35,551 nucleotides of DNA from Candidatus Cybelea sp. (GTDB taxonomy: Bacteria; Vulcanimicrobiota; Vulcanimicrobiia; Vulcanimicrobiales; Vulcanimicrobiaceae): positions 1 to 35,551 of the forward strand of contig DATAQH010000229.1 in the NCBI GenBank assembly GCA_036264815.1, written 5' to 3'. Positions 10,950 through 35,283 of the stretch are shown here, piece by piece; the stretch's first letter is position 1; each line of letters begins with the position of its first letter. Both the position numbers and the translations under genes were made by a program. The notes beneath the pieces were generated by a model. The model ran no database searches, had not been told where the DNA came from, and worked only from the letters and a program-made list of their open reading frames with translations.

Positions 10950-13900
10950 GTGCGAAAACGCTTTGCAATCGGCCTGGTGGCCGCGGCGATAGTTATCGGG
11001 CTCGCGGTCGCAAAGCGCCACGAGCTGCTTCGCGGCGCCCTCGTGGCCGGCGCGGGGATTGCCGGATATCAGCTGCGCATCGGCGGGCTGCACGTCGACC
11101 GGGACGAAGCCGTGATTGCCGGGCTCTCCGTAGCGCGCGCGTCGCAGCCGCTGCTGCGCGCGAAGCGCATTACGCTGCGTTACTCCCTGCGCGATCTCTT
11201 TCCGGGCAGCCGGCATCGCTTCGGGCTCGTCGACGTCGAAGCCGTAGGCGTCAAGCTAACGCTTACTCGATTTCGCGACGGAAGCTTCGATATCGCGTTG
11301 CCGGGCACGGGCCCGGCGCCGCCCGGGCCGCAGCCCGTCAACGGCGTACCGCTGCGCTTCCACGCCCGCGTCGCCGACGCGCAGATCGTCCTTCGGGAGC
11401 CGACCGCTTTCGATGCAAGCGCGCGCACGATACGCATCAACGGCATCAACGGCGACGCCGGCATCGATTCGGCAGCGGTTACGAGCTATCGCGTCGCAGG
11501 CGCGTTCGAAGAGCGCCGGCGGCGGGAGCCGTTTACCGTGCGCGGGCGAATCGACGAGCCGGCCGGCTTCGCCACGCATCACGCCAAGGCGGCTCGTTTT
11601 CCGCTGCGCGCCCTCTCGAACTATTTCGCGCAGAGCCCCGACGTCGTGATCCTGCGCGGCGGCGCGAGCAACTTCGATGCAGTCGTTTATGCACTCGGCC
11701 TCGAGACGGGTGTGCCGCCTTCGTATCACGTGACTTTGAAGCTCGACGTCCACGACGCGCGTCTCGCCTTTCGCGCACTGGCAATTCCTATCGAGGATAT
11801 CAATGCCCGGCTCAACGTCGTCGACAACGCGTTCTTCGTAACGGGCGCGCGCGCGACGCTGGCGAAGATCCCGCTGCAGATTCGCGGGGGAATCTTCGAT
11901 CTTAGCGGCGCGCTCACCGGTGCGGCGCAACTTCGTCTGGCCGTTTGGGGAAGCGGCAGCCTCAACAATTTGCGCGAGGCCTTTTCCTTCACGCGCGACC
12001 AGCCGATCGCGGGTAAGGTGACGCTCGGCGTTTCCGTGCGCGGTCCGATCAACGATCCGCTGATCGTTGCCAAGGCGACCGCGCCTCGCGCCAGCTATCG
12101 CGCGCTTCCGTTCGATGACCTAGCGGCCGGCGTCGTGTATCACTCCAGCGTCGTCGCGCTTGCGCCGCTGCTCGCGCGCTACGGAGGGGTTTCGGTGGCG
12201 ATTCGCGGGAGGCTGCAGACCGGCGCGCATTTGAAGTCAGAGTTCGGCCTCCATGTCGCCGGGCCGGCAAGCCGGCTGCCGTATCTCGACGAGATGCTTG
12301 GCGACGAGCCGATCCTCATCGATGCGGTCGCCACCGGCAACGACCTACGCTTTCACCTGCTCGGCAGCGCCGCATCCGCGCGTGGAGTCGATCGCGTGGC
12401 CGCGCTCGTCCAGATGAACGGCAACGGAACCGCGCTCGTCGACCCGTTCTGGCTGCACACGCCACGCGGCAACCTCGACGGGGGATACCTGCTCGATCGT
12501 CCGAGGGGCACGAGTGCGTTTTGGATGATCGCCGACCGTTTGGCGATGCGCGCACCGCGCTACAACGCGTTTCCGAACTTGACGCTGCCGCAGGTGCCGA
12601 AGATCGACGGGGGACCCTTCGGCATATCGGTTGCGGGCGGGGGCGCCGGCAACGACATCGTCTTAGCCGGAGTCGTGCACGGATCGAACGCGAGTATCGC
12701 CGGAGTGCACTTCACGCGGCTGCGTGCTTCGTTGGCCGGCACCCTCGCGAACGCGCCGATCAACCGTCTGGAGGCCGATGGACCCTGGGGAACATTTGCG
12801 GGCAGCGGCGCTTTTTCGACGCAGCGATTCGTCGCGAGCGGGAAGTATCGCGGCACCTTTGAAGGCCTCGCTCCACTTCTCGGCAGCGCGATCGAGGGCC
12901 GCGGACCGGTTAGCGGCAAGGTTGCGATCGCCGTCGAGGGCGCGCGGATCGTCGTCGTCGGTTCGGATCTTGCAATGCCTGGTGCAACCCTGCGAAGCAT
13001 TCCGATCGATCGTGCCAGCGTGACGCTGGCGGTCGAGGGAAACCGGCTGCGAATCTATTCGGCGCACGCGCATGCCGCCGGCGGCGACGTCGTAGCAGCG
13101 GGCACTTTTGCGCTAGGCCCGGGCGCCAAAGTTGGTTCGCTTTCTTTGGTCGCCAATCGGCTCGCCGCCTCTCAGCTGCGCGGCATCGGCCTGCCGCTCG
13201 AAGGCGGTACGATCTCGGCGAGCGGAAATTTGCGCGCGGGTTCGCCGGTCCCGAGCTTTCTCGGGGGCGTGGCGGTCAACGGCTCGCGCGTCGCGCAGTT
13301 TTCGCTGGCGGGTGACTCCGAGATCGACCTTCACGGCGACTCCGTAGGACTGCGGCGGATGCTCGGAGCGCTCGGCGGAACGTACGCGCGGGTAGACGGA
13401 AGTATCGGTTCGCTGACCTCGGGGTCGCCGAGCTACTCGCTTAACGCCGAGGTGGCGGCTTCGCAGATCTCGCGCACGCTGCACGCGTTCGGCCTTCCAA
13501 ACTACATGACCGACGGCTCGTTCAACGCGCGCGTGCATATCGGCGGGCGAAGCGCTTCGCCGACGGTAAGCGGCGCGATCGGCGTACCGGCGGGCGAGGT
13601 CAACGGCCTGCCGTTCGTCGACGCGAGCGCCGCACTCAACGCGGATCGAACTGGAGTGAGCATGCGAGGAGGGTCGGTGGTCGTCGGCACGACGAAGGCG
13701 CGCTTCGATGCCGTCTCGCGCCCGCACGTCCTGGCGATGCAGGTGGACGCACCCTACGCCGATCTCTCCGATTTCAATAATTTTTTCGATACCGGCGATA
13801 CGCTCGACGGTGACGGCAGCGTGCGTATCGCGGCTGCCTCGAGCCAAGCGCGCATAACGACAAGCGGCAACATCGATATCCGCAGTCTGCGCTATCGAAA

Positions 13901-16178
13901 TCTGCCAATCGGCGATACGCGCGCCGTGTGGTCGAGCGCGCGCAACACGGTAAGCGGAACGTTGGCCGTCGGCGGCCGTGAAGGCGTGCTGCACGCCCAC
14001 GGCACGATCGACTTGGTGCCGGGTCCGCAGTGGCTCGATACGCTCGAGCGCTCGCGCTACGATCTCGCCGCGGGCGTCAGCAATCTCGATCTGTCACTCT
14101 GGCTGCCGGCGCTCGGAATGCAGGCGGTGCCCATTACGGGACGGGCCGCCGGAGAGGCGACGGTTCGCGGCCGGTTTCCAGAGATCGGGGGGCGCGGCCA
14201 CGCCGGCATCTCAGGCGGTACGCTCGGACCGCTAACGCTCGATACCGCGACGGTGGCGCTGCACGCCGCGGGCAGGCGCGTGGTCGTCGACCAAGCCCAG
14301 CTGCTGACGCCGGGGCTCTCCGCTACCGCCTCCGGTACGCTCGGCTTCGACGCGTCGCAGCCGCTCGATCTGCGGGTCTACGCGGCGACGAACCGGCTCG
14401 CCGAGCTCGTCTACGACGCTGCGCGAGTGCGTATTCCGGTTAGCGGCGCGTTCGAATCGACGCTGACCATCGGCGGAACGTATCGCGTGCCGACCTTCGT
14501 TGCCGGCTTCGATGGAACCGCCGTGAAAGCGTACGGCATTCCGATTTCCACGCTCTTTGGGGAGCTGCGCTTGCGCCGCAACGCGCTCGTGCTCTCGAAT
14601 GCGGGGGTGACCTTCAAGAAGGGCGAGGCGAGCCTAACCGGTGCCGTGCCGCTGCGGCTTGCGCCGCTCGGTATCACGCTGGATCAACCGTTGAGCTTCG
14701 ACGTAGACGTCGTCGGCCTCGATCCTGGAATCTTTTCCGATACGCTCGGCGGCAATACGAAGATGACCGGATCGCTCGACGGGCACCTCGGCGTCTCGGG
14801 GACGTTGCGTAGTCCGGCGCTCGTCGGCCGCGTCTCGCTGGCGAATGGGTCGTACGTCAGCGACCTAGAGCGCATCCCGATTACGCAGATGGTAGCGGAT
14901 ATCGTCTTCGATCACGCGGCCGCCTCGCTCGTCAGGGCGTCGGCGCGCGCCGGCAGCGGAGTACTCTCGGGGTCCGGCAAGGTATCGTTCCCTTCGGGAC
15001 TCTCGGCCGCCGGATTATCGATTGCGCTGACCGGGGTCGCACGCGGAGCGCAGCTCGACCTTCCCGCTTACGGCAGTGGAACGCTCGACGCGGCGCTGAC
15101 GGTGGCGAAGCAGCCGTCTGGTCTCGCCCTCCTTTCGGGAAGCGTGACGCTCAGCAATGCGGCGTTGCCCTTCGCCTCATTTCTTAAAGCTGCCACGCAG
15201 ACGGGTGCCGGGCAAACGCTCGCTTTGCCGCTTGCCTTCGACGTGCGAGCGACGGCCGGCAAGAACGTGAGGGTTCGGGGGAACGGCTACGGCGCCGGGC
15301 TCGACATCGGCGCGAGCGGATCGGTCCGGCTTGCGGGTACCCTCGCCGCCCCGACCCTCGAGGGCACGTTCGAGTCCACGGGAGGCACGCTGACCTATTT
15401 CGATCGCGCCTTTCGCGTTCAGCAGGCGAGCGTTCGGTTCGATGCCGCGGACGGCGTGCTTCCGACGCTTCATGCCGTCGCGAGCACAACGGTCGTGAAT
15501 CCCGATCCCGACCGGGGCCGCAATCCGTATGGGAGCGCGGACGTGACCATCACGGTCAACGGTCCGATCGCCGGCCTAAAGGTCGGCCTCGACTCGAGTC
15601 CGTCGGGGTACACGCGGGATCAGATACTCGCGCTCATCGCGCCGCTCGGCGGCTTCGTAAGCGGTATCTCGTTTAGCCGCCAGCAACTGCTGGCCCGGCA
15701 GCAGCCGGCCGGGATCACGCCGCTGGGCACGCTCTCCCCGATACCGAACGTATCGCTATCGCAGAACAGCAGCATTACGGTCGGCCAGGAAGCCTTTAAC
15801 ATTCTCAACGCTCAGTTTACCGCCGGACTGCTGGCTCCGGTGGAGACCACGATCGGGCAAGGGCTCGGGCTCTCGAGCATCAACTTGACGCTCGGCTATT
15901 ACGGAAACGTCGGATTGACCGCCACGCGCTTGCTCGGCAAAGCCGTGAGCGCAGTGTACGCCGTAACTTTCGGTCTACCTCAGGTGCAATCGTTTGGGCT
16001 GGTGCTCCAGCCCGGGCCGACGACCACGGCAAACCTCAACTTCTTCTACCAATCAGGCCCGACGAAACTTTTACAGCTCCCCGGCTCGCCGATCGGATAC
16101 AGCGCCGGCTATCTCGTCGGCCAGCCGTTGCTCGGTAACAGCGGCTTCAGCCTTACCCTGCAGCACTATTTCTGGTGA
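10950..16178 (+). CDS. tamB: TamB/AsmA-like translocation and assembly module protein (DUF490-type C-terminus), 1742 aa
   Basis: Single N-terminal TM anchor (FAIGLVAAAIVIGLAVA) followed by a very long G/A/S/V/T-rich beta-type region. C-terminal region GGTLTYFDRAFRVQQASVRFDAADGVLPTLHAVAST resembles the TamB DUF490 signature. The protein ends in aromatic ...LQHYFW and lies directly upstream of bamA. Confidence 0.85.
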   Translation: MRKRFAIGLVAAAIVIGLAVAKRHELLRGALVAGAGIAGYQLRIGGLHVDRDEAVIAGLSVARASQPLLRAKRITLRYSLRDLFPGSRHRFGLVDVEAVGVKLTLTRFRDGSFDIALPGTGPAPPGPQPVNGVPLRFHARVADAQIVLREPTAFDASARTIRINGINGDAGIDSAAVTSYRVAGAFEERRRREPFTVRGRIDEPAGFATHHAKAARFPLRALSNYFAQSPDVVILRGGASNFDAVVYALGLETGVPPSYHVTLKLDVHDARLAFRALAIPIEDINARLNVVDNAFFVTGARATLAKIPLQIRGGIFDLSGALTGAAQLRLAVWGSGSLNNLREAFSFTRDQPIAGKVTLGVSVRGPINDPLIVAKATAPRASYRALPFDDLAAGVVYHSSVVALAPLLARYGGVSVAIRGRLQTGAHLKSEFGLHVAGPASRLPYLDEMLGDEPILIDAVATGNDLRFHLLGSAASARGVDRVAALVQMNGNGTALVDPFWLHTPRGNLDGGYLLDRPRGTSAFWMIADRLAMRAPRYNAFPNLTLPQVPKIDGGPFGISVAGGGAGNDIVLAGVVHGSNASIAGVHFTRLRASLAGTLANAPINRLEADGPWGTFAGSGAFSTQRFVASGKYRGTFEGLAPLLGSAIEGRGPVSGKVAIAVEGARIVVVGSDLAMPGATLRSIPIDRASVTLAVEGNRLRIYSAHAHAAGGDVVAAGTFALGPGAKVGSLSLVANRLAASQLRGIGLPLEGGTISASGNLRAGSPVPSFLGGVAVNGSRVAQFSLAGDSEIDLHGDSVGLRRMLGALGGTYARVDGSIGSLTSGSPSYSLNAEVAASQISRTLHAFGLPNYMTDGSFNARVHIGGRSASPTVSGAIGVPAGEVNGLPFVDASAALNADRTGVSMRGGSVVVGTTKARFDAVSRPHVLAMQVDAPYADLSDFNNFFDTGDTLDGDGSVRIAAASSQARITTSGNIDIRSLRYRNLPIGDTRAVWSSARNTVSGTLAVGGREGVLHAHGTIDLVPGPQWLDTLERSRYDLAAGVSNLDLSLWLPALGMQAVPITGRAAGEATVRGRFPEIGGRGHAGISGGTLGPLTLDTATVALHAAGRRVVVDQAQLLTPGLSATASGTLGFDASQPLDLRVYAATNRLAELVYDAARVRIPVSGAFESTLTIGGTYRVPTFVAGFDGTAVKAYGIPISTLFGELRLRRNALVLSNAGVTFKKGEASLTGAVPLRLAPLGITLDQPLSFDVDVVGLDPGIFSDTLGGNTKMTGSLDGHLGVSGTLRSPALVGRVSLANGSYVSDLERIPITQMVADIVFDHAAASLVRASARAGSGVLSGSGKVSFPSGLSAAGLSIALTGVARGAQLDLPAYGSGTLDAALTVAKQPSGLALLSGSVTLSNAALPFASFLKAATQTGAGQTLALPLAFDVRATAGKNVRVRGNGYGAGLDIGASGSVRLAGTLAAPTLEGTFESTGGTLTYFDRAFRVQQASVRFDAADGVLPTLHAVASTTVVNPDPDRGRNPYGSADVTITVNGPIAGLKVGLDSSPSGYTRDQILALIAPLGGFVSGISFSRQQLLARQQPAGITPLGTLSPIPNVSLSQNSSITVGQEAFNILNAQFTAGLLAPVETTIGQGLGLSSINLTLGYYGNVGLTATRLLGKAVSAVYAVTFGLPQVQSFGLVLQPGPTTTANLNFFYQSGPTKLLQLPGSPIGYSAGYLVGQPLLGNSGFSLTLQHYFW

Positions 16179-16366: not shown

Positions 16367-18631
16367 ATGACCTTTGACCCCCGACGCATCCGCGCAAGCA
16401 GATGGCGCTTGGGCATCATTCTTCCGCTCCTCGCGATGCTTCGGCTGAGCCTCGCGCCCGCGGTTGCCGCGCCCGCGCCCGCGGCTCCGAAGATTGTGTC
16501 CGTAGACATCACCGGCAACCTGCACGTTCCGACGTCGACGATCATGTCGGTGATCGCGGCGCGGCCGGGCCAACCCTACGATCCCAAGACCGTTCAGGAC
16601 GATCTCGCGCGTATCAACGCGCTCGGGTATTTCGCCGATATCGCGCCGCCGCTGGTACGCGCGCGCCCCAACGGTGTGGCCATCACGTATCGGGTCGTCG
16701 AGAATCCGGTCATTACGAAGATCGACTTCACCGGAAATCAGAAAGTGTCCAGCGACACGCTGTCGGCGTTGATGGACCTCTCCGTCGGTCAGGTTTTCAA
16801 CACGAATACTTTCCGGCAGGACGTACTGAAGATCAATAACTACTACGAGCGTATCGGCTACGGCGGCCAAGTGCCGACGCACGTCAAAGACATCAATCTC
16901 GACTCGAAGACCGGCGCCTTGACGCTGACGATTCAAGAAGGTTTGATCGTCAAGAACATCGAGATCGGCGGCGACCCCCTGCTCCCGCCGCAGCTGATTC
17001 TGCCGGCGCTGACGCTCAAAGAAGGCAGCGTTTATTCCGACGCCGTTCGCGACGCCGACGCAAAAGCGCTGCAGAAGCTCTACGAGAACCACTTCCACCT
17101 CGAGCTCGGAAACTTCGAAGGCGGCATCGTACCGTCGTCGATCGATCTCAAAGCCGGGACGGCGGACGTGAAGTACAATATCTACGTCGCACGCATCGAG
17201 GTCGTCGAGATCACCGGTAACACCCGAACGAAGGACAACGTCATCCGGCGCGAGCTGCGCGAACGCCCGGGCATGGTCCTCAATACGGATGCGATCAAGC
17301 GCGACTACGAGCGGCTCAACGCGCTGAACTTCTTCTCGAAGGTCGAGCCGGACATCAAGCCCGGACCAGACCCGAAGAAGCCGCAGGACGTTACGGTCGT
17401 CTGGCACGTCACCGAACAGCGTACCGCTTCGGCCTCGGTGGGCTTCGGGTATTCGGGCGGCCTGACGGGCCTGGGCCTCTACGCAACGCTTGGCCTGACC
17501 GATACGAACCTGCACGGCACCGGCAACTCCGCCGGAATTCAGTTTGAAGAAGGCGCCCGGACCGGTGTCGCCCAGCTCAATTTGTCGGTTCCCTACCTCG
17601 GCAATACCCCTCAGGGACAGCGCTACACCGCCGGCGGCTCGATCTTCTTCAACCATTCGACGTATTATTATCCGGTCTACAGCATCACCGGAAGCGGAAG
17701 CTCGATCGCGAGCAATCCCAACGTGCCGATCCCGGTCACGCTCTATCCGAGCTCGAGCTCGCAGCAGCTCGGGAACATCGTTGCGACCAGCACGTCCAGC
17801 TCCAACGGCGTCACCGGCAACGTCGGCCGCCGCCTCAGCGACTACACGATCCTATCGCTTGCGGTCACCGGAGAGAAGATCCGATACGACACGAACGTGC
17901 CGTCACCGTACTACTTCCAAGGTAATCAGCCGAACATCTTCGTCGGGCCGTCGCCCTCGCCGATCAGTTCTACGCCCAATCAGTACGGCGGCTCCTTCGG
18001 TATCGCGGCGGCTTCGATCGCCAACGTCAACACGGGCTCGCCGTACAACCTCATCACGACCGGATTGAGCTTGCAGTCGATCACGCTCGACGATCCGTTC
18101 AACCCGCGCGAGGGTGTGAAGGCGCTCCTCAACTCGACCTTATCGACGCCGACGTTCGGCTCGAATTTCTCTTTCACGCAGAGCACGATCGATCTGGCGA
18201 AGTTCTTCCCGATTCTGCGGGACGCCACCATCGGCGTTCACGGCGTCGGGTACGTATCGACCGGTATCATTCCGCCGAGCTCGCTGTTTACGTTCTCGGA
18301 CCAGCAGATGCGCGGCTATAACCAAGTCTTTTACGCGACCAATGCGTACCTCGGTCAGATCGAACTGCGCCAGCCGCTGGCGCTCGACCGCCGTATTACG
18401 CTCGCGTTCTTCGTCGACGAACTCGACTATCGAATCCGGGGAGCCTATCCGCTGCTCAATCCGTACACCAACCGGATCACCGGGTACCCGTCGGACTGGG
18501 CACTTTTAGGCGACGCCGGCGCGGGCATCCGCTTCGACGTGCCGCAGCTGGGCCTGCGCACGGTGCGCATCGATTTTGCCAAGGGTCTCTACGGTACGCA
18601 CACCAGCTTCGGAATCGGGCAAAGCTTCTAG
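16367..18631 (+). CDS. bamA: Outer membrane protein assembly factor BamA (Omp85)
   Basis: 754-aa ORF with a signal peptide and repeated POTRA-type units (KIVSVDITGN..., ITKIDFTGNQKVS..., VKNIEIGG..., IEVVEITGNTRTKDNVIRREL). C-terminal barrel ends in GIGQSF, a terminal-Phe beta-signal, followed by TAG. Confidence 0.92.
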   Translation: MTFDPRRIRASRWRLGIILPLLAMLRLSLAPAVAAPAPAAPKIVSVDITGNLHVPTSTIMSVIAARPGQPYDPKTVQDDLARINALGYFADIAPPLVRARPNGVAITYRVVENPVITKIDFTGNQKVSSDTLSALMDLSVGQVFNTNTFRQDVLKINNYYERIGYGGQVPTHVKDINLDSKTGALTLTIQEGLIVKNIEIGGDPLLPPQLILPALTLKEGSVYSDAVRDADAKALQKLYENHFHLELGNFEGGIVPSSIDLKAGTADVKYNIYVARIEVVEITGNTRTKDNVIRRELRERPGMVLNTDAIKRDYERLNALNFFSKVEPDIKPGPDPKKPQDVTVVWHVTEQRTASASVGFGYSGGLTGLGLYATLGLTDTNLHGTGNSAGIQFEEGARTGVAQLNLSVPYLGNTPQGQRYTAGGSIFFNHSTYYYPVYSITGSGSSIASNPNVPIPVTLYPSSSSQQLGNIVATSTSSSNGVTGNVGRRLSDYTILSLAVTGEKIRYDTNVPSPYYFQGNQPNIFVGPSPSPISSTPNQYGGSFGIAAASIANVNTGSPYNLITTGLSLQSITLDDPFNPREGVKALLNSTLSTPTFGSNFSFTQSTIDLAKFFPILRDATIGVHGVGYVSTGIIPPSSLFTFSDQQMRGYNQVFYATNAYLGQIELRQPLALDRRITLAFFVDELDYRIRGAYPLLNPYTNRITGYPSDWALLGDAGAGIRFDVPQLGLRTVRIDFAKGLYGTHTSFGIGQSF

Positions 18632-18662: not shown

Positions 18663-19466
18663 ATGAAAACTCGATCAATTATTCTCAGCGCCGCCGCGTT
18701 GCTGCTGGCGGCCTCGCTTATGCCGGGTGCCATAGCGGCCGACCTCACCGACGTCGCGTACGTCGATCAGGCCGACGTCGCCAACCTGCCCGTCTTTTTG
18801 AGCGCAAATCGTCAGCTCGCCGGGTTCAAGGCTCAGATGGACGCGCAGTATAACTCGCAGATCGCCCACGCCAGATCCGATGCCGACAAGCAGCGGATAA
18901 CGATGCAGTTTCAGCAGCAGCTCAACGACAAGCAGCGCGAAGTCGTCGGGCCGCTTTTCCAGCGAGTGCAGCTGGCGATCGCGGCGGTTGCCGCGGCGCA
19001 CAACGTCTCGGTCGTCGTCGACAAGCGAATCGTGATTTACGGCGGCCAAGACGTCACCAAAGACGTCGAGACGATTTTCTCAAGCCCGCAGGCGGTCTCT
19101 CCGCCGGCGGCCTCCCCGCCGCCGTCGGAGATCGGTTTTGTCGACCAAAGCGCGCTCGACGGAATTCCGAAGGTGCAGGCGGCGAATCAGCAGATGTCGC
19201 AGTTCGAGAGTACGCAGCGACAGCTCTACGCCGCGAAGATGGACTTGGCGAAGGGCAACGGCGACAAGCAGCAAGTCCTCACGGCCTATAACAAGTCGAT
19301 ATCCGACAAGCAGGATCAGCTGCTCAAACCGCTGGTCGACGCGACAAAATCGGCAACCGCCGACGTCGCGCGCAAAAAGAACCTGCTGCTCGTCGTCGAT
19401 CGTGCCGATGTCGTTTATGGAGGCACGGACATCACCACGGATGTCCAGAATGAGCTCTCGAAATAG
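18663..19466 (+). CDS. Periplasmic chaperone, tandem (duplicated) OmpH/Skp-like protein
   Basis: ATG 18663 after GAAGGAAG, with signal peptide MKTRSIILSAAALLLAASLMPGAIA. Two OmpH-like modules are joined by a proline-rich linker (SPPAASPPPSE). Each module starts (V)A/GYVDQ... and ends ...VVVDKRIVIYGGQDVTKDV or ...LLVVDRADVVYGGTDITTDV. Confidence 0.8.
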   Translation: MKTRSIILSAAALLLAASLMPGAIAADLTDVAYVDQADVANLPVFLSANRQLAGFKAQMDAQYNSQIAHARSDADKQRITMQFQQQLNDKQREVVGPLFQRVQLAIAAVAAAHNVSVVVDKRIVIYGGQDVTKDVETIFSSPQAVSPPAASPPPSEIGFVDQSALDGIPKVQAANQQMSQFESTQRQLYAAKMDLAKGNGDKQQVLTAYNKSISDKQDQLLKPLVDATKSATADVARKKNLLLVVDRADVVYGGTDITTDVQNELSK

Positions 19467-20751: not shown

Positions 20752-21155
20752 AAAAGAATAGATACTTCATCGTCATCGCACTTGCAGCGATGCTCGCCGG
20801 CTGCGCGACGCACAGCCAGATCGGGCTGGTGGACGTGCAGCGAATCGTAAGCAACTGGCCCGAGTACCAAGGCTATCAAAACCAACTGGTCTCCGAAGAG
20901 CGGTCGATCGCCTCGCGACGAGAGAGCGCCGGTCGCCGAGCGCGCGATACGGTTGCGTTGGAGCGCAAATATGCAAAGATCACCGATCAGCTCTCGCAGC
21001 AGATTCGCGACGCCGCCGGGAAGATCGCCGCGAACGGCCAGATGAAGCTCGTGTTGACTCGCGAGGGCATCGGCTACGGCGGCACGGACATCACCAGCGA
21101 CGTCGAAAAGTCGCTGAACATAACGGAGAAGGCTACTCCCACACCGGGAGTCTAG
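20748..21155 (+). CDS. Small OmpH/Skp-like lipoprotein
   Basis: 135-aa ORF with GTGA overlap onto the previous stop. Lipobox AAMLAGC. IGLVDVQRIVSNWPEY...MKLVLTREGIGYGGTDITSDVEKSL matches the OmpH pattern. Confidence 0.8.
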   Translation: MKKNRYFIVIALAAMLAGCATHSQIGLVDVQRIVSNWPEYQGYQNQLVSEERSIASRRESAGRRARDTVALERKYAKITDQLSQQIRDAAGKIAANGQMKLVLTREGIGYGGTDITSDVEKSLNITEKATPTPGV

Positions 21156-24306: not shown

Positions 24307-24318
24307 ATCGAGTTCTCG

Positions 24319-27346: not shown

Positions 27347-28536
27347 TGCGGCGCTTCGTCCCCCCCGGCCTCGCGCTGATCTACTCGGCGCTCCCACTTT
27401 TTCCGAGCTTCATCGCGCTGACCGGCGTGGCGTTTCCAGGCGTCTCGCTGCTGCCGATTCCGGCGACGCTCGCGGTGCTCGGCGGCTGCTGCGTTCTTGC
27501 CGTTTACGCGCTGGTCATACTCGCACGATATCCGCTGCCCGGCTCGCAGCCGCTGTTTTTGCCGTTGCTCTCGATCTTCGCTGCGGGACTGCTCGCCGGA
27601 TGCTTGGGCTTCGATCCGCGCTCGGGTCTGCTCTTCACCTTCATCGGCGGCCTCGGTATCGTCTGGCACTGCTCGATCATGCGCTTCTACGACGATCGCT
27701 ACGCGGCTGCAGCGCTCTTCTTTGCCTATCTTCTCTCGGGAGGCATCGCGGCCGCGGTTGCAATCGTGACGGTCGTGCTGCGCGTACCGGCGGCGCTCTA
27801 CGCGCTGCAGCACGGGCGTGCGACCGGAACGTTCATCCTGCCCGGCGAGCTCGCGGGGTATCTGATCGTGCTGCTGCCGGTCGCCTTTGCCGTCGGGCGC
27901 GTCGCGAGTCTGCCGGCAATGCGAGCCCTCGCATGGAGCGTCTTCGGCGTCGGGCTCGTCGCTCTGGTGCTGACGTTTTCGCGCGCCGGATGGATGGGCG
28001 CGGCAGCCGCGGCGGCCTTCCTGGTCGCGGTGCGTACCCGTCGCCCCGCGGTTGCGGCAGCGGTCGCGGGCGCCGGCCTTTTGGCGATCGTGCTGCTCTT
28101 TAACGCGCATCACGATCCGAGCGAAGATTACACGCGCCTCTCGATCTGGCAGGCAGCCATCGAGATCATCAACCGCTTCCCCCTGCTGGGCGTCGGGCCG
28201 TTCAACTTCTCGCATCTCTACGCGCTCGTCCGCGCACCCGACGGGGACGCGACGGCATTCCACGCTCACAGCCTCTATCTCACGTTTTTCGCCGAGTTCG
28301 GACTCGTGGGAGTCGCCGCGGTCGCGTGGACGATGTGGCGATTCGCGCAAGAACTGCAGCGGCGGCTCGCCACCGCCACGCCGTCGGCGGCGCTGCTCTC
28401 CTGCAGCATCGCCGCCGGGCTGGTCGGGGTGGGAGTTCAAGGCCTGATCGACACGGTGAGCGTGGTAATCTTTGGATTATGGATGCCCACGTTGGCCCTT
28501 GCGCTTGCCACGGCAGCCTCTCGCGAGGTTCCCTAG
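27346..28536 (+). CDS. O-antigen ligase/polymerase-like polytopic membrane protein (Wzy_C family)
   Basis: ATG 27346 (TGATG overlap). About 10 predicted TM helices. RATGTFILPGELAGYL, TFSRAGWMG and FHAHSLYLTFFAEFGLVG resemble the WaaL/Wzy_C periplasmic-loop signature. Confidence 0.8.
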   Translation: MRRFVPPGLALIYSALPLFPSFIALTGVAFPGVSLLPIPATLAVLGGCCVLAVYALVILARYPLPGSQPLFLPLLSIFAAGLLAGCLGFDPRSGLLFTFIGGLGIVWHCSIMRFYDDRYAAAALFFAYLLSGGIAAAVAIVTVVLRVPAALYALQHGRATGTFILPGELAGYLIVLLPVAFAVGRVASLPAMRALAWSVFGVGLVALVLTFSRAGWMGAAAAAAFLVAVRTRRPAVAAAVAGAGLLAIVLLFNAHHDPSEDYTRLSIWQAAIEIINRFPLLGVGPFNFSHLYALVRAPDGDATAFHAHSLYLTFFAEFGLVGVAAVAWTMWRFAQELQRRLATATPSAALLSCSIAAGLVGVGVQGLIDTVSVVIFGLWMPTLALALATAASREVP

Positions 28537-29084
28537 TGCGGCTGGTTCGAGCGGTCGCGGCGCTCGTTCTGACGACGGTCACCGCGTGCAACCCGCAGCC
28601 CCCCAAAAGCGCTCCGTCCCCGCGGCCGCACGCGACGCCGCGTGCCAAGGGCACCCCGCTTACCTTCGTGGTCACCGGGAAAGGCACGGCCAATCGCCCG
28701 ATCCACTTTATTCAGCAAGTCCACAACCGCATAAACTACGATCTGCTGGCGAGCTCGTACGAGAGCAAGGGCCCGCAGAACAGCATGCGCTCGGTCTTCT
28801 CGGATGCCCGGGTTACGTTTCGGGACCCCAAGGGCTCCACGATCACGGCCAGCGCTCCGCAAGCCGTCGTCGATCAGACCGCGAACACCGTTACGCTGAC
28901 CGGCGGCGTGGCGGCTCACACCGCGGCGGGGATGACGCTGCACTGCGACGAGCTCGTTTATCGTCGGGACAACGCTAGCTTACACGGAGACGGCAACGTA
29001 GTGATTACCGACCCCAAAGGCTTTCGCGCAACCGGGTCCAGTTTCGATTCCGACATTTCGCTGACACACATGCGGATGCAATGA
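28536..29084 (+). CDS. LptC/OstA-fold periplasmic LPS-transport protein, probably lipidated
   Basis: GTG 28536 (TAGTG overlap). Signal with VLTTVTAC. The beta-rich body ([83 protein letters not shown]) fits the LptC/LptA jellyroll repeat pattern. ATGA overlap with lptB. Confidence 0.6.
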
Positions 29085-29824
29085 GCCACGTCCCCTCAAT
29101 CAAGGTACGCGGACTCGTCAAACGGTACGGCGAGCGCACCGTCGTCAACGGCGTCACGGCCGCAGTAGAGACGGGTGAAGTCGTCGGCCTGCTGGGGCCC
29201 AACGGAGCCGGCAAGACGACGACGTTCTACATGGTCGTCGGACTCGTCAAGCCCGATGGCGGAAGCGTGCTCTTGACCAACGGCGACCACGAGATCGATC
29301 TGACCGGTGCGCCGATGTACGCGCGTGCGCGAAACGGTATCGGTTATCTCGCGCAAGAGAACTCGATCTTCCGCAAGCTCTCCGTCGGCGACAACATCCG
29401 CCTGATCTGGCAGCAGAACGGCGTCCCGCACGACGAACGCGAGCGGCGGCTGCCGGCACTCCTCGAAGAGTTCGGTTTGCGCGCTTTCGTCGACGCTCGC
29501 GGGGACAGCCTTTCGGGAGGCGAGCGGCGGCGCGTCGAGATCGCCCGGGCCCTCGCGATCGAGCCATCGTTCCTTTTGCTCGACGAGCCCTTCACCGGCA
29601 TCGATCCGATTGCCGTCGCCGATATCCAGGCGATGATCCGTCAGCTACGCGACCGCGGTCTCGGGATCCTGATTACCGACCACCAAGTACGCGAAACGCT
29701 CGCGATCGTGGACCGCGCGTACATCCTCAACAATGGGCGAATCGAAGTCTCGGGCTCCGCGCAAGAGGTGCTCGACTCCCCGATCGCACGCCAATTCTAT
29801 CTGGGCGAAGGGTTCCGGTTATAG
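29081..29824 (+). CDS. lptB: LPS export ABC transporter ATP-binding protein LptB
   Basis: 247-aa [56 protein letters not shown], and C-terminal [10 protein letters not shown] typical of LptB. Confidence 0.93.
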
Positions 29825-29849: not shown

Positions 29850-30953
29850 GTGCGGTTTACGATTCTCGACCGCTACATGCTGGCCGAGCTGGGCGGCCCG
29901 TTCGTCTTCGGCCTGTCGGCATTTATGCTCATCTTCGCGGCGACCGAGATCTTGAACATCGGCAAGCTGGTGAGCAACGATCACGCACCGATCTGGGCCG
30001 CGCTAACGGTCTTCCTATGGTCGCTGCCGGCCGATGTCGTGCTCGTGATTCCAATGGCGCTCCTGCTCGGCACGCTGCTCGCGGTTCAGCGACTCTCGGG
30101 CGAGAGCGAGCTTACCGCGATGAAGGCTGCGGGAATTACCTTCACCCGGATCGTGGCTCCGCTATTGGCCGTCGGTATCGTGATGTCGTTCGTCACGTAC
30201 TATCTCCAAGAGAGCGTCGTGCCGTATGCCAACGATCAGCTCACGGAGATCGAAAACGGGGTGATCAATCACATCAGCGCGTTCAACCGTGACTTGACCG
30301 TTTCGGCCCCGCTGCCCGGCGGCGGAAGACAGATGACGATCGCTACCGCGTACGAACCGAACTCGCGCGCGTTGCTTCACGTAACGTTGATTCAATACGA
30401 CAACCACAACGAGCCCCGGCAGATCATCTTTGCCGATCGGGCCGAGTTCGGCGCCGATAAGTGGACGCTGCAGAACTCCAGCGTCTATCGTTTCAGTCCC
30501 GACGGCACGACGCTCTCCGAGCCGCACATCCCGTTCCAGGAGGTCCAAATCGGCGAAAAGCCAACGGATTTGGTCAAGCGCATGAGCAACGACGATCCCG
30601 AGAACATGAGCCGATCGGAGATCGCCGACGTCGTCCACTCCGGCCAGCTGACCGAAACGGAGCGCCGCAAGTACGTTACGACCTACCAGGAGAAGCTGGC
30701 GCGGCCCTTTGCAAGCTTCGTCTTCATTCTCATCGCCATACCGTTTGGATTGCGGCAGATCCGATCGAGCGGCAGCACGAGCCTCGGCTTCGGGCTCTCG
30801 TTGGCAATCGTCTTCGTTTACTACGTCGTCATGACGGTCTGCTCGTTCGCGGGGGAAGCGATGCTTTCGCTTGCCGCGTTGTGGGCCTGGATGCCGAACC
30901 TGCTGTTTACCGCGATCGGATTGTTCCGGCTGCGACGAGCCGCAATGGTATGA
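29850..30953 (+). CDS. LptF/LptG-family LPS export permease (YjgP/YjgQ)
   Basis: GTG 29850 preceded by GGAGGAG. FTILDRYMLAELGGPFVFGLSAFMLIF N-terminus, a periplasmic beta-jellyroll insert, and C-terminal TM helices. Only one such gene is in the window. Confidence 0.88.
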   Translation: MRFTILDRYMLAELGGPFVFGLSAFMLIFAATEILNIGKLVSNDHAPIWAALTVFLWSLPADVVLVIPMALLLGTLLAVQRLSGESELTAMKAAGITFTRIVAPLLAVGIVMSFVTYYLQESVVPYANDQLTEIENGVINHISAFNRDLTVSAPLPGGGRQMTIATAYEPNSRALLHVTLIQYDNHNEPRQIIFADRAEFGADKWTLQNSSVYRFSPDGTTLSEPHIPFQEVQIGEKPTDLVKRMSNDDPENMSRSEIADVVHSGQLTETERRKYVTTYQEKLARPFASFVFILIAIPFGLRQIRSSGSTSLGFGLSLAIVFVYYVVMTVCSFAGEAMLSLAALWAWMPNLLFTAIGLFRLRRAAMV

Positions 30954-31204
30954 GCTTTGTCGAGATCGTCCGCGGGATCGGTAACGTCGCCTTCGTGATG
31001 GCCATCGCCGGCGGCGTGGCTTACGTCGGCGATCGCGTCGGCCATCAGGTCGGCCGCCGGCGTTTGAGCCTGTTTGGAATTCGCCCGCGTTACACGTCGA
31101 CGATCGTCGCCATCGCGACCGGAATGGTGATCGCCCTGGTCGTAACCCTCGGCGCGATATTTGCCTCGCAACAGGTAAAGACGGCGTTCTTCAAGCTAAA
31201 TTAG
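30950..31204 (+). CDS. DUF3084-like protein, N-terminal membrane fragment (terminated by in-frame TAG)
   Basis: ATG 30950 (ATGA overlap with the lptF/G-type gene). FVMAIAGGVAYVGDRVGHQVGRRRLSLFGIRPRYTSTIVAIATGMVIALVV matches my recollection of the DUF3084 N-terminus: two TM helices flanking GDrlG..vGkkRLSlF.lRPr.T. Confidence 0.7.
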   Translation: MSFVEIVRGIGNVAFVMAIAGGVAYVGDRVGHQVGRRRLSLFGIRPRYTSTIVAIATGMVIALVVTLGAIFASQQVKTAFFKLN

Positions 31205-31297
31205 ATTAACGCGCAGATCGGCGAGCTTCAGGCCCGCCAGCGCGATCTCGAAACCAAGGTCAACAGCGGACGGCTCGTCTTCCCGGTCGACACGCTG

Positions 31298-31888
31298 ATG
31301 GTCCCGTTCTACCGGATCATCGACCAGTCGGCGTCACCCGCGAAGCGCCTGTCGACGGTTCGCGACTACTACTTCTTTGCGGTGAAGTACGTCAACGCGA
31401 CCTATCCCCGCCTGGGGCTGCGCCCGTACGTCTTCCCGCCCGACGTAGACAAGAAGCTCAGCGGCGTCGCCAACGATCTGACGACCGCTGCGAAGCTCTC
31501 GCAGGCCAACGTCATGCTCACCGTAACGTCGGATCAGAATCTGTTCGAAAACGACCAGATTCACTTCGCGATCAACGTGACGCCGGACATCCGCTACTTT
31601 CGCAAGGGCGATATCATCGCGCAGCTCGTGATCCCAGGCCGGAGCGGCGCGAGCATCAACATCGCGCTTTCGCAGCTGCAGAACTACGTCTCGATCACGG
31701 CCCGGCGGCTGCAGCTCCCGACGTTCCTTACCGACATTCAGCCGCTTCAGCTAATTCCCGACGCGCAGCAGATGCAGCAGCGAATCTCGCGCCAAGGCAC
31801 CTTTCTGCTCACGGCGTACGTCGCGCAGGATTTCTATCCGCACGTCGGCGGTATCCCGATCGTGATCGTCCTGACCCCCCGGCCTTGA
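31298..31888 (+). CDS. DUF3084-like protein, C-terminal fragment (frame open from 31205)
   Basis: Same reading frame as 30950-31204. The codons immediately after the TAG read INAQIGELQARQRDLETKVNSGRLVF (coiled coil) before the first ATG at 31298. Together the two pieces form one 312-codon gene interrupted at codon 85. Confidence 0.7.
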   Translation: MVPFYRIIDQSASPAKRLSTVRDYYFFAVKYVNATYPRLGLRPYVFPPDVDKKLSGVANDLTTAAKLSQANVMLTVTSDQNLFENDQIHFAINVTPDIRYFRKGDIIAQLVIPGRSGASINIALSQLQNYVSITARRLQLPTFLTDIQPLQLIPDAQQMQQRISRQGTFLLTAYVAQDFYPHVGGIPIVIVLTPRP

Positions 31889-32307
31889 GCCCCGGCGGGG
31901 CGGTGCTGGCGATCGATCCGGGGCGCCGCAAGGCCGGCTACGCGGTACTCTCGACGGCAGGAGCGGTCCTCGAGGCCGGCATCGAGCCGGTCGCCGAGCT
32001 GGAGCAGCGCGTGGCCGAGCTGCTCGGAAGGCTCGGCATCGACCGCATTGCGATCGGCCGGGGAACCAACGGCCGTGCCGTTCGCCGCCTGGTCGAGCGC
32101 TTCGGGGTGCCGATTTTCTGGGTGGATGAGTTCGAGACGACCCGCGCCGCCCGGAGCCTCTATTTCGTGGAACATCCGCCGAGAGGCTGGCGACGTCTGA
32201 TCCCGATCGGCCTTCAGACGCCGGGGCGGCCGGTGGACGATTATGCGGCGATCGTCATCGCCCGCCGGTTTCTCGCAAGGGGACTGGCCGCTCAATCTCC
32301 AACCTAA
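31885..32307 (+). CDS. YqgF/RuvX-like putative pre-16S rRNA nuclease / Holliday-junction-resolvase-like protein
   Basis: 140-aa ORF with TTGA overlap onto the previous stop. LAIDPGRRKAGYAVL, IAIGRGTNG, VDEFETTRAAR, and DDYAAIVIARRFL follow the RNase-H-fold YqgF pattern. Confidence 0.7.
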   Translation: MSPGGAVLAIDPGRRKAGYAVLSTAGAVLEAGIEPVAELEQRVAELLGRLGIDRIAIGRGTNGRAVRRLVERFGVPIFWVDEFETTRAARSLYFVEHPPRGWRRLIPIGLQTPGRPVDDYAAIVIARRFLARGLAAQSPT

Positions 32308-32379: not shown

Positions 32380-33384
32380 GTGCGTCGGATCGTCGCCGTC
32401 CTAACGAGCGCAGCACTCGCGCTAATGTTGGCGCGTGCCGCACAGGCTAACCTCCTGCCAATACCGGCGTCGCAGCCCGATTTAGCCTCGCAGCTGATGC
32501 TGCGTCTCTTCGGCGAGACTGCCGACTCAACGGCGTCCTTTTCCGCGCAAAACGGCGATCGCGTAAGCGAATCGCCGTTGCACGAACTGGCGCTTCGCGT
32601 GCCGGGAACCGATTCGAACAACCCGCAAAACTCGGGAGGCGCTTCGGTCGCCGTGCTGGCGCAACAACTCGCCGTAAATAGTTTGGGAACCGACGCATCG
32701 TACCTCGCGCGCGCGGCGGACGCGGGCCTGCTGTCTACCCAGATCCGTTTCGCGCCGGCGACGTCGCAGCCGAGCCAAGGGCTTTCGGGGACGCAGAGTT
32801 CGCTGCTAACGGTCGCCTATCAACCGGTTGCGCGGGTGCCGAACATCTCTCCCGGCCCGGGTACCCTCGCGTTCGATAGCACGTCGTCGCCGGCCGCGCC
32901 CGCCCTCACCAAAGACCTTCCGCTGGAGTTCAATCCGGATCTGAAACAGTCCAGAGGATTCAACCTCAGCGTCTCGGGTCAGTACGAAGGCTCGACCCCG
33001 AGCGATATCGCCGGGCTCACCGCGGCAACGCCGGCCGCACCGGCGTGGCACCTCCCCGACGCCGACGCCGCGCTGGCCGCTCCGAACTATGCCGGCTCAA
33101 ATAAGGTCTCTCTGCGCGCGGGCCTCGCGGTTCCGGTCGTTCACGGCTTGACGCTGAATCTAAACTACGACGCACAGCGATCCTCCGGAGGCACCGTCCT
33201 GCCGGGCCTTGAGAATCTCGACGCAGCGAACAACTCCTACATCGGACGCCTCACCTACACGATTCCCTACTCGTCGAGCACCCTCTCGGTCTCCGCGTAC
33301 CAGAACCGGTACGGGCAGAGCGTTCTCCCGCTCAACGGCTATACGCAAACCGGCGAAGACGTCAACTTTACCGTCAAGTTTTAG
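32380..33384 (+). CDS. Secreted protein, candidate outer-membrane beta-barrel (no recognisable family)
   Basis: GTG start after ACGGAGG. Signal peptide MRRIVAVLTSAALALMLARAAQA, then an S/T/A/P-rich middle. The C-terminus shows alternating-hydrophobic strands (LTLNLNYDAQ, YIGRLTYTIPY, TLSVSAYQNRY) and ends in VNFTVKF, a terminal-Phe beta-signal. Confidence 0.6.
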   Translation: MRRIVAVLTSAALALMLARAAQANLLPIPASQPDLASQLMLRLFGETADSTASFSAQNGDRVSESPLHELALRVPGTDSNNPQNSGGASVAVLAQQLAVNSLGTDASYLARAADAGLLSTQIRFAPATSQPSQGLSGTQSSLLTVAYQPVARVPNISPGPGTLAFDSTSSPAAPALTKDLPLEFNPDLKQSRGFNLSVSGQYEGSTPSDIAGLTAATPAAPAWHLPDADAALAAPNYAGSNKVSLRAGLAVPVVHGLTLNLNYDAQRSSGGTVLPGLENLDAANNSYIGRLTYTIPYSSSTLSVSAYQNRYGQSVLPLNGYTQTGEDVNFTVKF

Positions 33385-33385
33385 A

Positions 33386-34261
33386 TCGCCGAAGTCGCGC
33401 CCGCTCTCGTTCTTTCGAGCGATTGTCGCTGTCGCTCTGACGTCGCTGCTCGTCGCCTTCGCGCTCGTCCAGTTCGCCTCTGAGGCACTCAGCGCGCGCG
33501 CGGCCGCGCCGCACACGATTCCGCGGCGTATTCCGCCGGAATTCGGCGAGCGCATTTATTCTATCCTCGATCGGATTGCCCCGGCGCCGTACGTCGAGGC
33601 ATCGCTGGCCCAATTCGCGCTCGAACGAGGTGACGCCGCAGCCGCGCGGCACTACGCGCTGCGTCTGCCTGCCTCGTCGAATCGGGACGAGCTTCTTTCC
33701 CAAATCGCGCTTGCAATGGGCTCGCGGCAGCTGGCGTTCGAGTACGCGCTTGCGGCCTTCGACGCCGACGCCGTCGCGGCGGAAGCGCAACGGCGTGCCG
33801 TCGACGATCCTCACGCCGCCTACGAACTGGAGGGTCTCCTGGCGCGGCGTTTGAGCGAGCGCACGACACATCCCGACGCGCTCGCGCAGGCGCATTGGCA
33901 GATGGGTCTCCTCGCTAACGAAACGGCCTGGAGAGAGGTACCCGGGAGTGCGCGTCAGCGGGCCTGGCTGCGCCGCGCCCTCGCCGAGTTCGAAACCGCC
34001 GTGCGACTAGCGCCGCTCTCGGAGCGCTACGCGATCGCCGACGCCAATCAAGCAGATCTGCTCGGCGAACGGGCGCGCGCGGCCCAGCTCTTCCGCCAGG
34101 CCGTCGCGCTCGATCCAAGCAGCGCCGATGCCGTCGCCGGGCTTGGGGTGATCGCCTTTGAAAACGGCGACCGGTTCGCCGCGAGGGACTACTTGGCGCG
34201 GGCTCGCGCGCTCGATGCGCATTCGTTGATGGTTCGTGCGTTGGAACGCGATCTGCGGTGA
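33386..34261 (+). CDS. Membrane-anchored TPR-repeat protein (start codon unresolved)
   Basis: The ORF-track start TTG 33209 overlaps the previous gene by 176 nt in a frame with poor G/C third positions. Good codon bias begins at about 33386 (SPKSRPLSFFRAIVAVALTSLLVAFALVQF, a basic n-region plus TM helix). Later TPR-like helices include AVRLAPLSERYAIADANQADLLGERARAAQLFRQAVALDPSSADAVAGLGVIAFENGDRFAARDYLARARALD. Confidence 0.65.
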   Translation, partial: SPKSRPLSFFRAIVAVALTSLLVAFALVQFASEALSARAAAPHTIPRRIPPEFGERIYSILDRIAPAPYVEASLAQFALERGDAAAARHYALRLPASSNRDELLSQIALAMGSRQLAFEYALAAFDADAVAAEAQRRAVDDPHAAYELEGLLARRLSERTTHPDALAQAHWQMGLLANETAWREVPGSARQRAWLRRALAEFETAVRLAPLSERYAIADANQADLLGERARAAQLFRQAVALDPSSADAVAGLGVIAFENGDRFAARDYLARARALDAHSLMVRALERDLR

Positions 34262-35283
34262 GGGTGGCGCTCGACGCGCAATTAGGCGTCGGCACCGCGA
34301 CGGGGATCGGCGAGTACGTGACGGGCTTGGCGGCGGCGCTTCGTCGCCGCGGCGTCGATCTCGTGGAGTTGCGCGAGCCGCGGCTCGATCCGTGGCGCTT
34401 CGACCGGCGCGTGCGCTGGGACCAAACCATTCTTCCCCTGCGTGCGCGCTCGAGCGGAGCGGACGTGCTGCACTGCGCGTCGGGGACGATGCCGCTGCTC
34501 CGGCCGATGCCGGTCGTCGTCACGGTTCACGATGTCGCATGGCTGCACGTGCAAGCGCACGCGCGCGCCTACGCGCGGTACTATTTCGGAAAGTTTTCGC
34601 TCGCACAGTATCGGGCGGCCGCTGCGATCGTCGTCGACTCGTCGTTTTCGCGAAAGGCTTTGCTCGAAGTGCTCGGCGGCATCCCCGCGCGCAGCGTGCG
34701 GGTCGTGTATCCGGGCGTCTCTCCTGAGTTTTGCGAAATCGCGCGAGGCGCCGGAGACGGGCGCACGATCCTCGCCGTCGGAACCGTCGAGCGACGAAAG
34801 AATCTCGAACTGCTGATCCGCTTGCTGCCGCAATTGGACGGCGCCCGTTTGGTCTCGGTGGGGCCGCAGACCGAGTACGCCGCGGAGTGCGCCGCGCTCG
34901 CCGGTCGCCTCAACGTTGCGTCGCGCGTGGAACTGCGCGGCTACGTTTCCCGCGAAGAGCTGCTAACGCTTTACCGGCAAGCAGCGGTCGTCGCGCTCGC
35001 GTCGCGCTACGAAGGATTCGGTTATCCCGCGGCCCAGGCGCTCTGCGCCGGAGTTCCGTGCGTCGTCTCGGATTGCGCTTCGCTTCCGGAGGTCGCCGGT
35101 GACGACGCCGTCGTCGCCGGCATCGATGACGAGCACGCCTGGCTCTCGGCGCTGACGGCGGCGTTGAGCGGGCAGGCCGATGCGGACGCAGCGCGCGTTC
35201 GGCGCAACGCGATCGCGCGGTTCTCTTGGGAGTCGAGCGCTGCGGCGATGCAGCACATCTACGAAAGCGTCGCGGGCTCCTAG
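34258..35283 (+). CDS. Family 4 (GT-B) glycosyltransferase
   Basis: 341-aa ORF with GTGA overlap. GIGEYVTGLAAAL, GTVERRKNLELLI, and GYVSREELLTLYRQAAVVALASRYEGFGYPAAQALCAGVPCVVSD form the EX7E-type GT4 signature. Confidence 0.85.
   Translation: MRVALDAQLGVGTATGIGEYVTGLAAALRRRGVDLVELREPRLDPWRFDRRVRWDQTILPLRARSSGADVLHCASGTMPLLRPMPVVVTVHDVAWLHVQAHARAYARYYFGKFSLAQYRAAAAIVVDSSFSRKALLEVLGGIPARSVRVVYPGVSPEFCEIARGAGDGRTILAVGTVERRKNLELLIRLLPQLDGARLVSVGPQTEYAAECAALAGRLNVASRVELRGYVSREELLTLYRQAAVVALASRYEGFGYPAAQALCAGVPCVVSDCASLPEVAGDDAVVAGIDDEHAWLSALTAALSGQADADAARVRRNAIARFSWESSAAAMQHIYESVAGS

Follow-up and report, generated by a model that had tools for sequence, protein, structure and literature searches.

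The stretch of DNA analysed here is a 35,551-nt contig of Candidatus (Ca.) Cybelea sp. (DATAQH010000229.1; hereafter, the window), which carries a long cluster of genes for outer-membrane and lipopolysaccharide (LPS) biogenesis. Between positions 10950 and 35283, 21 successive genes lie on the plus strand and cover ~24 kb; the initial annotation had counted about 20. The G+C content of the window, 61-68%, makes long spurious open reading frames (ORFs) common, and the real genes were chosen by third-position GC (GC3) and stop-to-stop frames. GC3 analysis detected no credible minus-strand or antisense gene in the interval.

The family assignment of every cluster protein was checked against Pfam and NCBIfam profiles, with the results listed in Table 1. 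The TamB, BamA, Lpx and Lpt calls made earlier were upheld, and profile support was also found for the O-antigen-ligase-like protein (Wzy_C), the DUF3084-like protein, the TPR protein and the GT4 glycosyltransferase. Two enzymes previously left as uncharacterised turned out to be a Metallophos protein, here called MPE (metallophosphoesterase), and a probable member of family TIGR03492. Other assignments stood in part. Among the three OmpH/Skp genes proposed, two are backed by 61 and 39 bits, while the middle one scores only 28 bits, under the Pfam cut-off; and the YqgF-like protein is a weak family match, at 24 bits and likewise under cut-off. Lipoprotein signals (LPSGC and LAGC) are present on two of the three Skp/OmpH-like proteins (19450-21155), and one of these lipoproteins, ~430 aa long, contains a long Q/A-rich coiled coil; both traits are unusual for Skp. 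The start of bamA at 16409 follows the gene call in a relative (L001, described below), an alternative being ATG 16367, and the protein ends in ...GIGQSF, followed by TAG.

Table 1. Features of the cluster and of the likely replication origin (L001, L084 and L085 are contigs of relatives)
Feature	Coordinates	Strand	Evidence and remarks
Four near-consensus DnaA boxes, likely oriC	4041..4206	.	directly upstream of dnaA (4254-5651)
TamB-like giant protein, 1742 aa, N-terminal membrane anchor	10950..16178	+	PF04357 92 bits, residues 1332-1655; L084 orthologue 1743 aa
BamA (Omp85, 4 POTRA)	16409..18631	+	POTRA 160 bits in 4 stretches; Omp85 69 bits
Skp/OmpH 1, signal peptide, two OmpH stretches	18663..19466	+	PF03938 61.6 bits
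Long Skp/OmpH-like lipoprotein, coiled coil, lipobox LPSGC	19450..20751	+	PF03938 28 bits, under cut-off 32.4; conserved in L001, L084, L085
Short Skp/OmpH lipoprotein, lipobox LAGC	20748..21155	+	PF03938 38.8 bits; start overlaps upstream stop (GTGA)
LpxD	21163..22185	+	PF04613 + Hexapep
LpxC	22219..23058	+	PF03331 292 bits
FabZ	23051..23524	+	PF07977 112 bits; TTG start, 8-nt overlap with lpxC
LpxA, TAG stop	23539..24306	+	Hexapep + PF13720
LpxB, probable CTG start	24319..25428	+	PF02684 184 bits; TIGR00215 160 bits, under its cut-off 190
MPE, cytoplasmic metallophosphoesterase, 247 aa, UshA/5'-nucleotidase N-domain only, motif GNRE	25443..26186	+	family, fold, neighbourhood
TIGR03492 'lipid-A-disaccharide synthase-related' glycosyltransferase	26183..27346	+	199.4 bits vs NCBIfam cut-off 219.2, full-length coverage (5-381); start overlaps MPE stop (GTGA)
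Wzy_C (O-antigen ligase / IctB-like) polytopic membrane protein	27346..28536	+	PF04932 74.5 bits; TIGR00947 IctB 78 bits, under cut-off
LptC-like	28536..29084	+	PF06835 26 bits; TIGR04409 39.1 bits vs cut-off 38
LptB	29081..29824	+	TIGR04406 330 bits vs cut-off 240
Single LptF/G-type permease	29850..30953	+	PF03739 255 bits; equivalogs LptG 211 bits (cut-off 240) and LptF 139 bits, both under cut-offs
DUF3084 membrane/coiled-coil protein, 312 codons, in-frame TAG 31202-31204	30950..31888	+	PF11283 84 bits
YqgF/RuvX-like (COG0816-type) small protein	31885..32307	+	RuvX 24 bits, Tex_YqgF 24 bits, both under cut-offs; start overlaps upstream stop (TTGA)
Putative outer-membrane protein, 334 aa, signal peptide	32380..33384	+	no family match
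Membrane-anchored TPR protein	33386..34261	+	TPR_19
GT4 glycosyltransferase, last of run; next gene on minus strand	34258..35283	+	Glyco_trans_1_4 + Glycos_transf_1

These genes fall into seven consecutive blocks, to which tentative functions can be attached. TamB, BamA and the three Skp-like chaperones would serve the insertion of proteins, and probably also of lipids, in the outer membrane; LpxD, LpxC, FabZ, LpxA and LpxB would provide the early Raetz pathway to lipid A; and the UshA-like MPE and the GT19-like TIGR03492 protein would be two accessory enzymes. After a putative ligase of Wzy_C type, LptC, LptB and LptF/G would make up the inner-membrane LPS extractor. The conserved DUF3084 and YqgF-like pair forms a block of its own, as do the last three genes, encoding the TPR protein, the GT4 enzyme and a putative outer-membrane protein whose homologues are, one label apart (see below), confined to Eremiobacterota.

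An exact look-up of the window's LpxC gave no record. Close homologues of two cluster proteins carry the source labels 'Candidatus Cybelea', 'Baltobacteraceae' or 'Eremiobacteraeota', and on these names we assign the window to Ca. Eremiobacterota (WPS-2; Baltobacterales, 'Ca. Cybelea'-like), which agrees with the prediction of a Terrabacteria-type diderm. The phylum Eremiobacterota already counts as diderm: a 2019 paper noted its LPS and BamA genes (PMC6664022), and in its first isolate, Vulcanimicrobium alpinus, thin sections reveal an outer membrane and iso-3-OH fatty acids are present (PMC9758169); lpxH, lpxI, lpxK, waaA and kdsA were not found in the supplements of the V. alpinus paper. 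In the long contigs of three relatives (L001, L084 and L085), the full order of the 21 genes is kept, and so is the end point, a minus-strand gene after GT4. The identity of MPE to the window protein is 93% in L001 and 72-73% in L084 and L085. Gene identities and order conservation are direct observations, and the linkage foreseen for the cluster, unknown-function members included, is therefore real, as the entire order is maintained in the three relatives. Its value for guilt by association is uneven: DUF3084 and the YqgF-like gene also recur after LptB-LptFG in more distant phyla, while the linkage of the putative outer-membrane protein, TPR and GT4 genes is narrower, being seen only in the three close relatives. 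Horizontal acquisition of the cluster was rejected in view of its even GC content and its conservation in relatives.

The cluster lies near the likely replication origin. Five sites with one mismatch to TTATCCACA are found in the window, four of them within 4041-4206, compared with a shuffle mean of 1.5 per window. As these DnaA boxes stand beside dnaA, the cluster begins ~6.7 kb from the likely origin, close to the ~7 kb estimated at first. The genes between the boxes and the cluster, dnaA-dnaN-recF-DciA-domain gene-gyrB, are all on the plus strand. On the other side, the first minus-strand gene beside the boxes is rpmA (L27; 3416-3817). The Prp-type N-terminal extension attributed to L27 is indeed present (MFDFDLQLF|ASKKG), though the window contains no prp gene, and neither rplU nor prp lies between rpmA and dnaA. 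A 105-aa ORF at 3948-4265 has no family match, spans the DnaA boxes and is probably not a gene.

About half of the junctions within the cluster overlap, by 1-17 nt. All the stop/start overlaps listed in the initial annotation were located in the sequence: GTGA at 20748, 26183 and 34258, TGATG at 27346, TAGTG at 28536, ATGA at 29081 and 30950, and TTGA at 25425 and 31885. In addition, the first two Skp genes overlap by 17 nt and lpxC and fabZ by 8 nt.

MPE starts with MLRIYHTSDLHDH and has neither a signal peptide nor a hydrophobic N-terminus. By sequence, its nearest relatives are the N-terminal catalytic domains of 5'-nucleotidases, UshA, CpdB and SoxB. The protein consists of a single Metallophos N-domain of 247 aa and lacks the C-terminal 5_nucleotid_C domain. 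A search of 1.84 billion cluster representatives revealed a family of such stand-alone proteins, ~235-260 aa long and sharing 30-50% identity. An AlphaFold2 model built from 46 homologues reached a predicted local distance difference test (pLDDT) score of 97 and a predicted template-modelling (pTM) score of 0.93, and its best structural matches in the PDB are YunD and the N-domain of Escherichia coli UshA (query-normalised TM-score, 0.78). The 46-member alignment shows no variation in the metal ligands D9, H11, D36, N67, H170, H193 and H195, and motif III reads GNRE in 45 of the 46 members. In ordinary metallophosphoesterases, the position taken by this arginine belongs to the catalytic histidine of GNH(D/E).

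With LpxH, MPE shares the metallophosphoesterase core and the conserved dinuclear-metal ligands, a motif GNRE that replaces GNH(D/E) as GNR(D/E) does in LpxH, a predicted cytoplasmic location and an lpx gene context; it differs from LpxH in lacking the helical insertion domain and any detectable sequence similarity. LpxG has an N-terminal transmembrane helix and the motif GNHD (PMC4807358), neither of which occurs in MPE. With UshA and 5'-nucleotidases MPE has in common the fold of the N-terminal catalytic domain, but it has no signal peptide and no 5_nucleotid_C domain, and carries Arg instead of the catalytic His. UshA is a UDP-sugar hydrolase (UDP, uridine diphosphate) and carries out UDP-sugar pyrophosphatase chemistry. 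According to the LpxH structure paper, LpxH alone has the His-to-Arg replacement, and there the arginine binds the phosphate of lipid X (PMC5016852).

The genomic neighbourhood of MPE was scanned in one genome per GTDB species, using patterns derived from a 7-sequence MPE alignment, and 80 loci were returned. These patterns are restrictive, and the missing matches in Cyanobacteriia are not evidence of absence. TIGR03492 adjoins MPE in 38 of the 80 species-level loci, and lpx genes are present in 34. Loci with TIGR03492 or lpx genes include some from Melainabacteria, several classes of Eremiobacterota (Vulcanimicrobiota, Xenobia) and UBP9. Such loci also occur in metagenome-assembled genomes (MAGs) labelled Chloroflexota, Synergistia, Bacillota and Burkholderiales, four labels that may be binning or classification errors. 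Among the loci fetched, the string lpxC-fabZ-lpxA-lpxB-MPE-TIGR03492 recurs in more distant phyla. No LpxH or LpxI domain was detected in any Pfam-annotated cluster-bearing contig; in these contigs lpxA and lpxB are contiguous, and the slot filled by LpxI in Negativicutes is empty. LpxG is likewise missing from the clusters in which MPE stands beside lpxB and TIGR03492.

Variants of the arrangement exist. In two loci the module is expanded to LpxB-[LpxD2]-LpxB-like-PEMT/ICMT-MPE-TIGR03492-[LpxA2] (L086:6846-11948 and L087:5851-12800); a third (L013:6551-11832) has an additional LpxB-like gene as well as a PEMT gene near MPE, and a fourth (L004:8309-11879) also carries an expanded module around MPE. 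The PEMT/ICMT-family membrane methyltransferase of this module resembles LmtA, the lipid A 1-phosphate methyltransferase of Leptospira. An LPS-linked locus without lpx genes nearby was found in an Armatimonadota MAG (L041:9968-13314), where a PMT_2 (ArnT-like) glycosyltransferase and then LptC-LptB-LptFG-DUF3084-YqgF come after an MPE homologue. Fusions of LpxB with MPE and of MPE with TIGR03492 were given little weight as Rosetta-stone evidence: they are singletons between genes that overlap, and may be frameshift artefacts.

Taken as a whole, the locus is very probably an envelope-biogenesis supercluster that was inherited vertically and lies beside oriC on the leading strand, and this reading also takes in, more tentatively, a putative operon structure and candidate roles of MPE and TIGR03492. 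The overlapping or tight junctions suggest that the cluster may be expressed as a few long, translationally coupled transcripts. Two points weigh against that part of the reading: promoter and terminator scans gave counts at shuffle level and were uninformative, and the gaps of ~190-230 nt between tamB and bamA and of 72 nt between the YqgF-like gene and the putative outer-membrane protein gene could hold promoters. One might also argue that the co-directional run merely reflects leading-strand bias near the origin together with chance adjacency, and is no functional unit, as dnaA, dnaN, recF, the DciA-domain gene and gyrB upstream are likewise on the plus strand and the promoter and terminator scans speak neither way. 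Such an explanation is highly improbable: it is contradicted by synteny, the order being kept at ~72% protein identity and sub-strings of it across phyla. Besides, the clustering stands well above chance, each of the 21 genes is either related to the envelope or a conserved partner, around ten junctions overlap, and the same clustering is documented in Firmicutes.

A more specific proposal concerns MPE, which in the reading we prefer would cleave UDP-2,3-diacylglucosamine to lipid X and uridine monophosphate (UMP) in place of LpxH, LpxI or LpxG, while TIGR03492 might act on the LpxB product or alongside LpxB. MPE would then found a fourth UDP-2,3-diacylglucosamine hydrolase class, working next to or with TIGR03492; it would be a candidate to fill the long-standing gap left by 'four-enzyme' lpx gene sets (see below) in Eremiobacterota, Melainabacteria, UBP9 and related Terrabacteria-type diderms, and its Arg-for-His replacement would be convergent with that of LpxH. 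We give this proposal slightly less than an even chance. In the literature searched, up to a February 2026 paper, only LpxH, LpxI and LpxG are named for the UDP-2,3-diacylglucosamine step, and searches on TIGR03492, the MPE family or a fourth hydrolase class returned nothing relevant. Several observations tell against the proposal. Its support consists of context and motifs; LpxH does not appear among the top 50 structural matches of MPE, nor among PDB sequence or profile matches at E<=10; the helical lipid-binding insertion of LpxH is not seen in the AlphaFold2 model; 25 MPE homologues from Armatimonadota, that of L041 among them, are not near lpx genes; and the LpxB-MPE and MPE-TIGR03492 fusion proteins, although they exist, each form a singleton cluster. 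The lack of a lipid-binding lid and the Armatimonadota homologues away from lpx genes would suit another explanation, to which we attach an appreciable if lesser probability: MPE might be a housekeeping hydrolase of nucleotides or UDP-sugars, removing for instance UMP or UDP that LpxB and glycosyltransferases produce, or it might be a cytoplasmic 1-phosphatase of lipid A or lipid X that would yield phosphate-poor lipid A as in cyanobacteria, with LpxH or LpxI encoded elsewhere. Its fold and sequence are those of the N-domains of 5'-nucleotidase, UshA and CpdB, and cyanobacterial LPS has been reported to lack phosphate (PMC3087551). Against such roles stand the family-wide replacement by Arg of the catalytic His of 5'-nucleotidases, as in LpxH, the absence of their C-terminal nucleotide-binding domain, and the position of the gene between lpxB and the GT19-like gene in several phyla; moreover, LpxB needs lipid X, and none of the clusters contains another candidate to supply it. 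We consider it unlikely that MPE, TIGR03492, the extra LpxD-, LpxA- and LpxB-like proteins and the ICMT/PEMT methyltransferase constitute a second, paralogous glycolipid pathway, devoted to a lipid A variant or to another acylated aminosugar lipid. The expanded modules of L086 and L087, and the second LpxB-like and PEMT genes of L013, are what one would expect of such a pathway. The window and its close relatives, however, have one LpxA, one LpxD and one LpxB beside MPE and TIGR03492; therefore, in this lineage the MPE-TIGR03492 module must work with the single core set. With MPE, the cluster offers a concrete candidate for a lipid A step that known enzymes leave uncovered in lineages with LpxA, LpxC, LpxD and LpxB only.

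Some genes of the cluster have unusual starts or stops. The homology of LpxB begins right after the TAG of lpxA, in the same frame, and the first ATG, GTG or TTG lies 129 nt downstream (ATG 24436); a start there would delete the GEPSGE N-terminus. The PF02684 match opens at residue 8 of the frame starting at 24307 and is full length, including the N-terminal G-E-x-S-G. A CTG at 24319 (LKYFISTGE...), present in the window and in L001, aligns with the ATG (MRYFFSTGE...) of L084 and L085; thus, lpxB probably starts at a non-canonical codon, CTG 24319, with ATC 24307 as an alternative. L001 shares the lpxB arrangement of the window, and its gene call is shortened to 330 aa. For annotation, this means that the non-canonical start codon leads pipelines to truncate LpxB in this lineage. 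The lpxA-lpxB spacer, 12 nt long in the window and in L001, extends to ~200-240 nt with palindromic GC-rich repeats in L084 (8685-8890) and L085 (8693-8935), where it may represent the insertion of a small repeat element.

The DUF3084 gene has an in-frame TAG at codon 85, where L001, L084 and L085 have TCG (Ser85); the L084 and L085 genes are uninterrupted ORFs of 312-313 aa. From this alignment, the TAG is best read as a nonsense mutation, with C changed to A at a single base, or as an error in base calling. Recoding is not a suitable explanation, since other genes of the window use TAG as an ordinary stop. Stop-codon recoding was rejected for the TAGs at the lpxA/lpxB junction and inside DUF3084 alike: TAG terminates BamA after ...GQSF and many other genes, three relatives have TCG at the DUF3084 site, and in L084 and L085 lpxB opens with ATG at the corresponding site. 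A canonical start is also missing from the TPR gene in the 33384-33450 region, where its L084 and L085 orthologues begin with GTG directly behind the preceding gene; the sole start further upstream, TTG 33209, would give a 175-nt overlap with that preceding gene, and an in-frame ATT immediately ahead of the membrane anchor may serve instead.

The 334-aa protein encoded upstream of the TPR gene has no Pfam or NCBIfam match. It has a signal peptide and a C-terminus (...VNFTVKF) that fits an outer-membrane beta-signal; the 'orphan barrel' of the initial annotation stays a tentative description, the AlphaFold2 model being unreliable (pLDDT, 40). Of its 199 homologues, those named by lineage all belong to Eremiobacterota, save one labelled 'Ca. 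Binatia'.

Comparison with known loci allows the familiar and the new elements of the cluster to be told apart. Antunes et al. 2016 described in Negativicutes and Halanaerobiales a large conserved outer-membrane/LPS locus with TamB/BamA, up to three Skp, lpx genes with fabZ, Lpt genes and three conserved unknowns, among them COG0816 (YqgF-like 'resolvase') and DUF3084 (PMC5007114). The resemblance suspected from the single-locus organisation, with tamB next to bamA as in diderm Firmicutes and other Terrabacteria, is real: in the window TamB, BamA and the Skp genes are adjacent, lpx genes with fabZ share one locus with lpt genes, and the same two unknowns, DUF3084 and the YqgF-like protein, occupy the same relative position after LptFG. 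As judged from gene content and order, the architecture is hence not new as a type, since it has already been published, the DUF3084 and YqgF-like pair included. In contrast with the Firmicute locus, that of the window adjoins oriC, belongs to another phylum, carries MPE and TIGR03492, and is devoid of LpxI, LpxK, WaaA, Kds, MsbA, OmpM/SLH, flagellar genes and the COG0750 protease. Pfam and NCBIfam profiles detected no lpxI, lpxK, waaA, kdsABCD or OmpM (SLH-porin) domains in 10950-35283, and the earlier statement that lpxK, waaA, kds, lptA, lptD and msbA are missing holds for the window.

The string LptB-LptFG-DUF3084-YqgF recurs in the Armatimonadota MAG mentioned above (L041), in a MAG labelled Synergistia (L010), in 'Ca. 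Bruticola' (L059), in two rumen MAGs (L035 and L070) and in another Eremiobacterota MAG (L054), and in all six the YqgF-like gene follows DUF3084. A second 'Ca. Bruticola' contig (L079) shows the string cut at its YqgF end. Literature searches on the function of DUF3084 returned nothing relevant. The presence of DUF3084 and the YqgF-like gene after LptFG in several phyla supports an ancestral Terrabacteria envelope gene cluster and keeps the two as priority targets among the unknowns. The single-locus organisation first described in diderm Firmicutes is thereby extended to Eremiobacterota.

The other system to be considered is the 'four-enzyme' lpxD-lpxC-fabZ-lpxA-lpxB cluster of Cyanobacteria and Dictyoglomi, described by Opiyo et al. 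2010 (PMC3087551), in which no enzyme is known to hydrolyse UDP-2,3-diacylglucosamine. The core order is identical in the window, which has no known enzyme for this fourth step either and likewise lacks lpxK, waaA and kds. The differences lie in the surroundings: in the window, the core is linked with TamB/BamA/Skp on its upstream side and with Lpt/DUF3084 on its downstream side, and MPE and TIGR03492 come after it. This conserved MPE-TIGR03492 module is the new element of the locus, as a candidate for the missing lipid A step.

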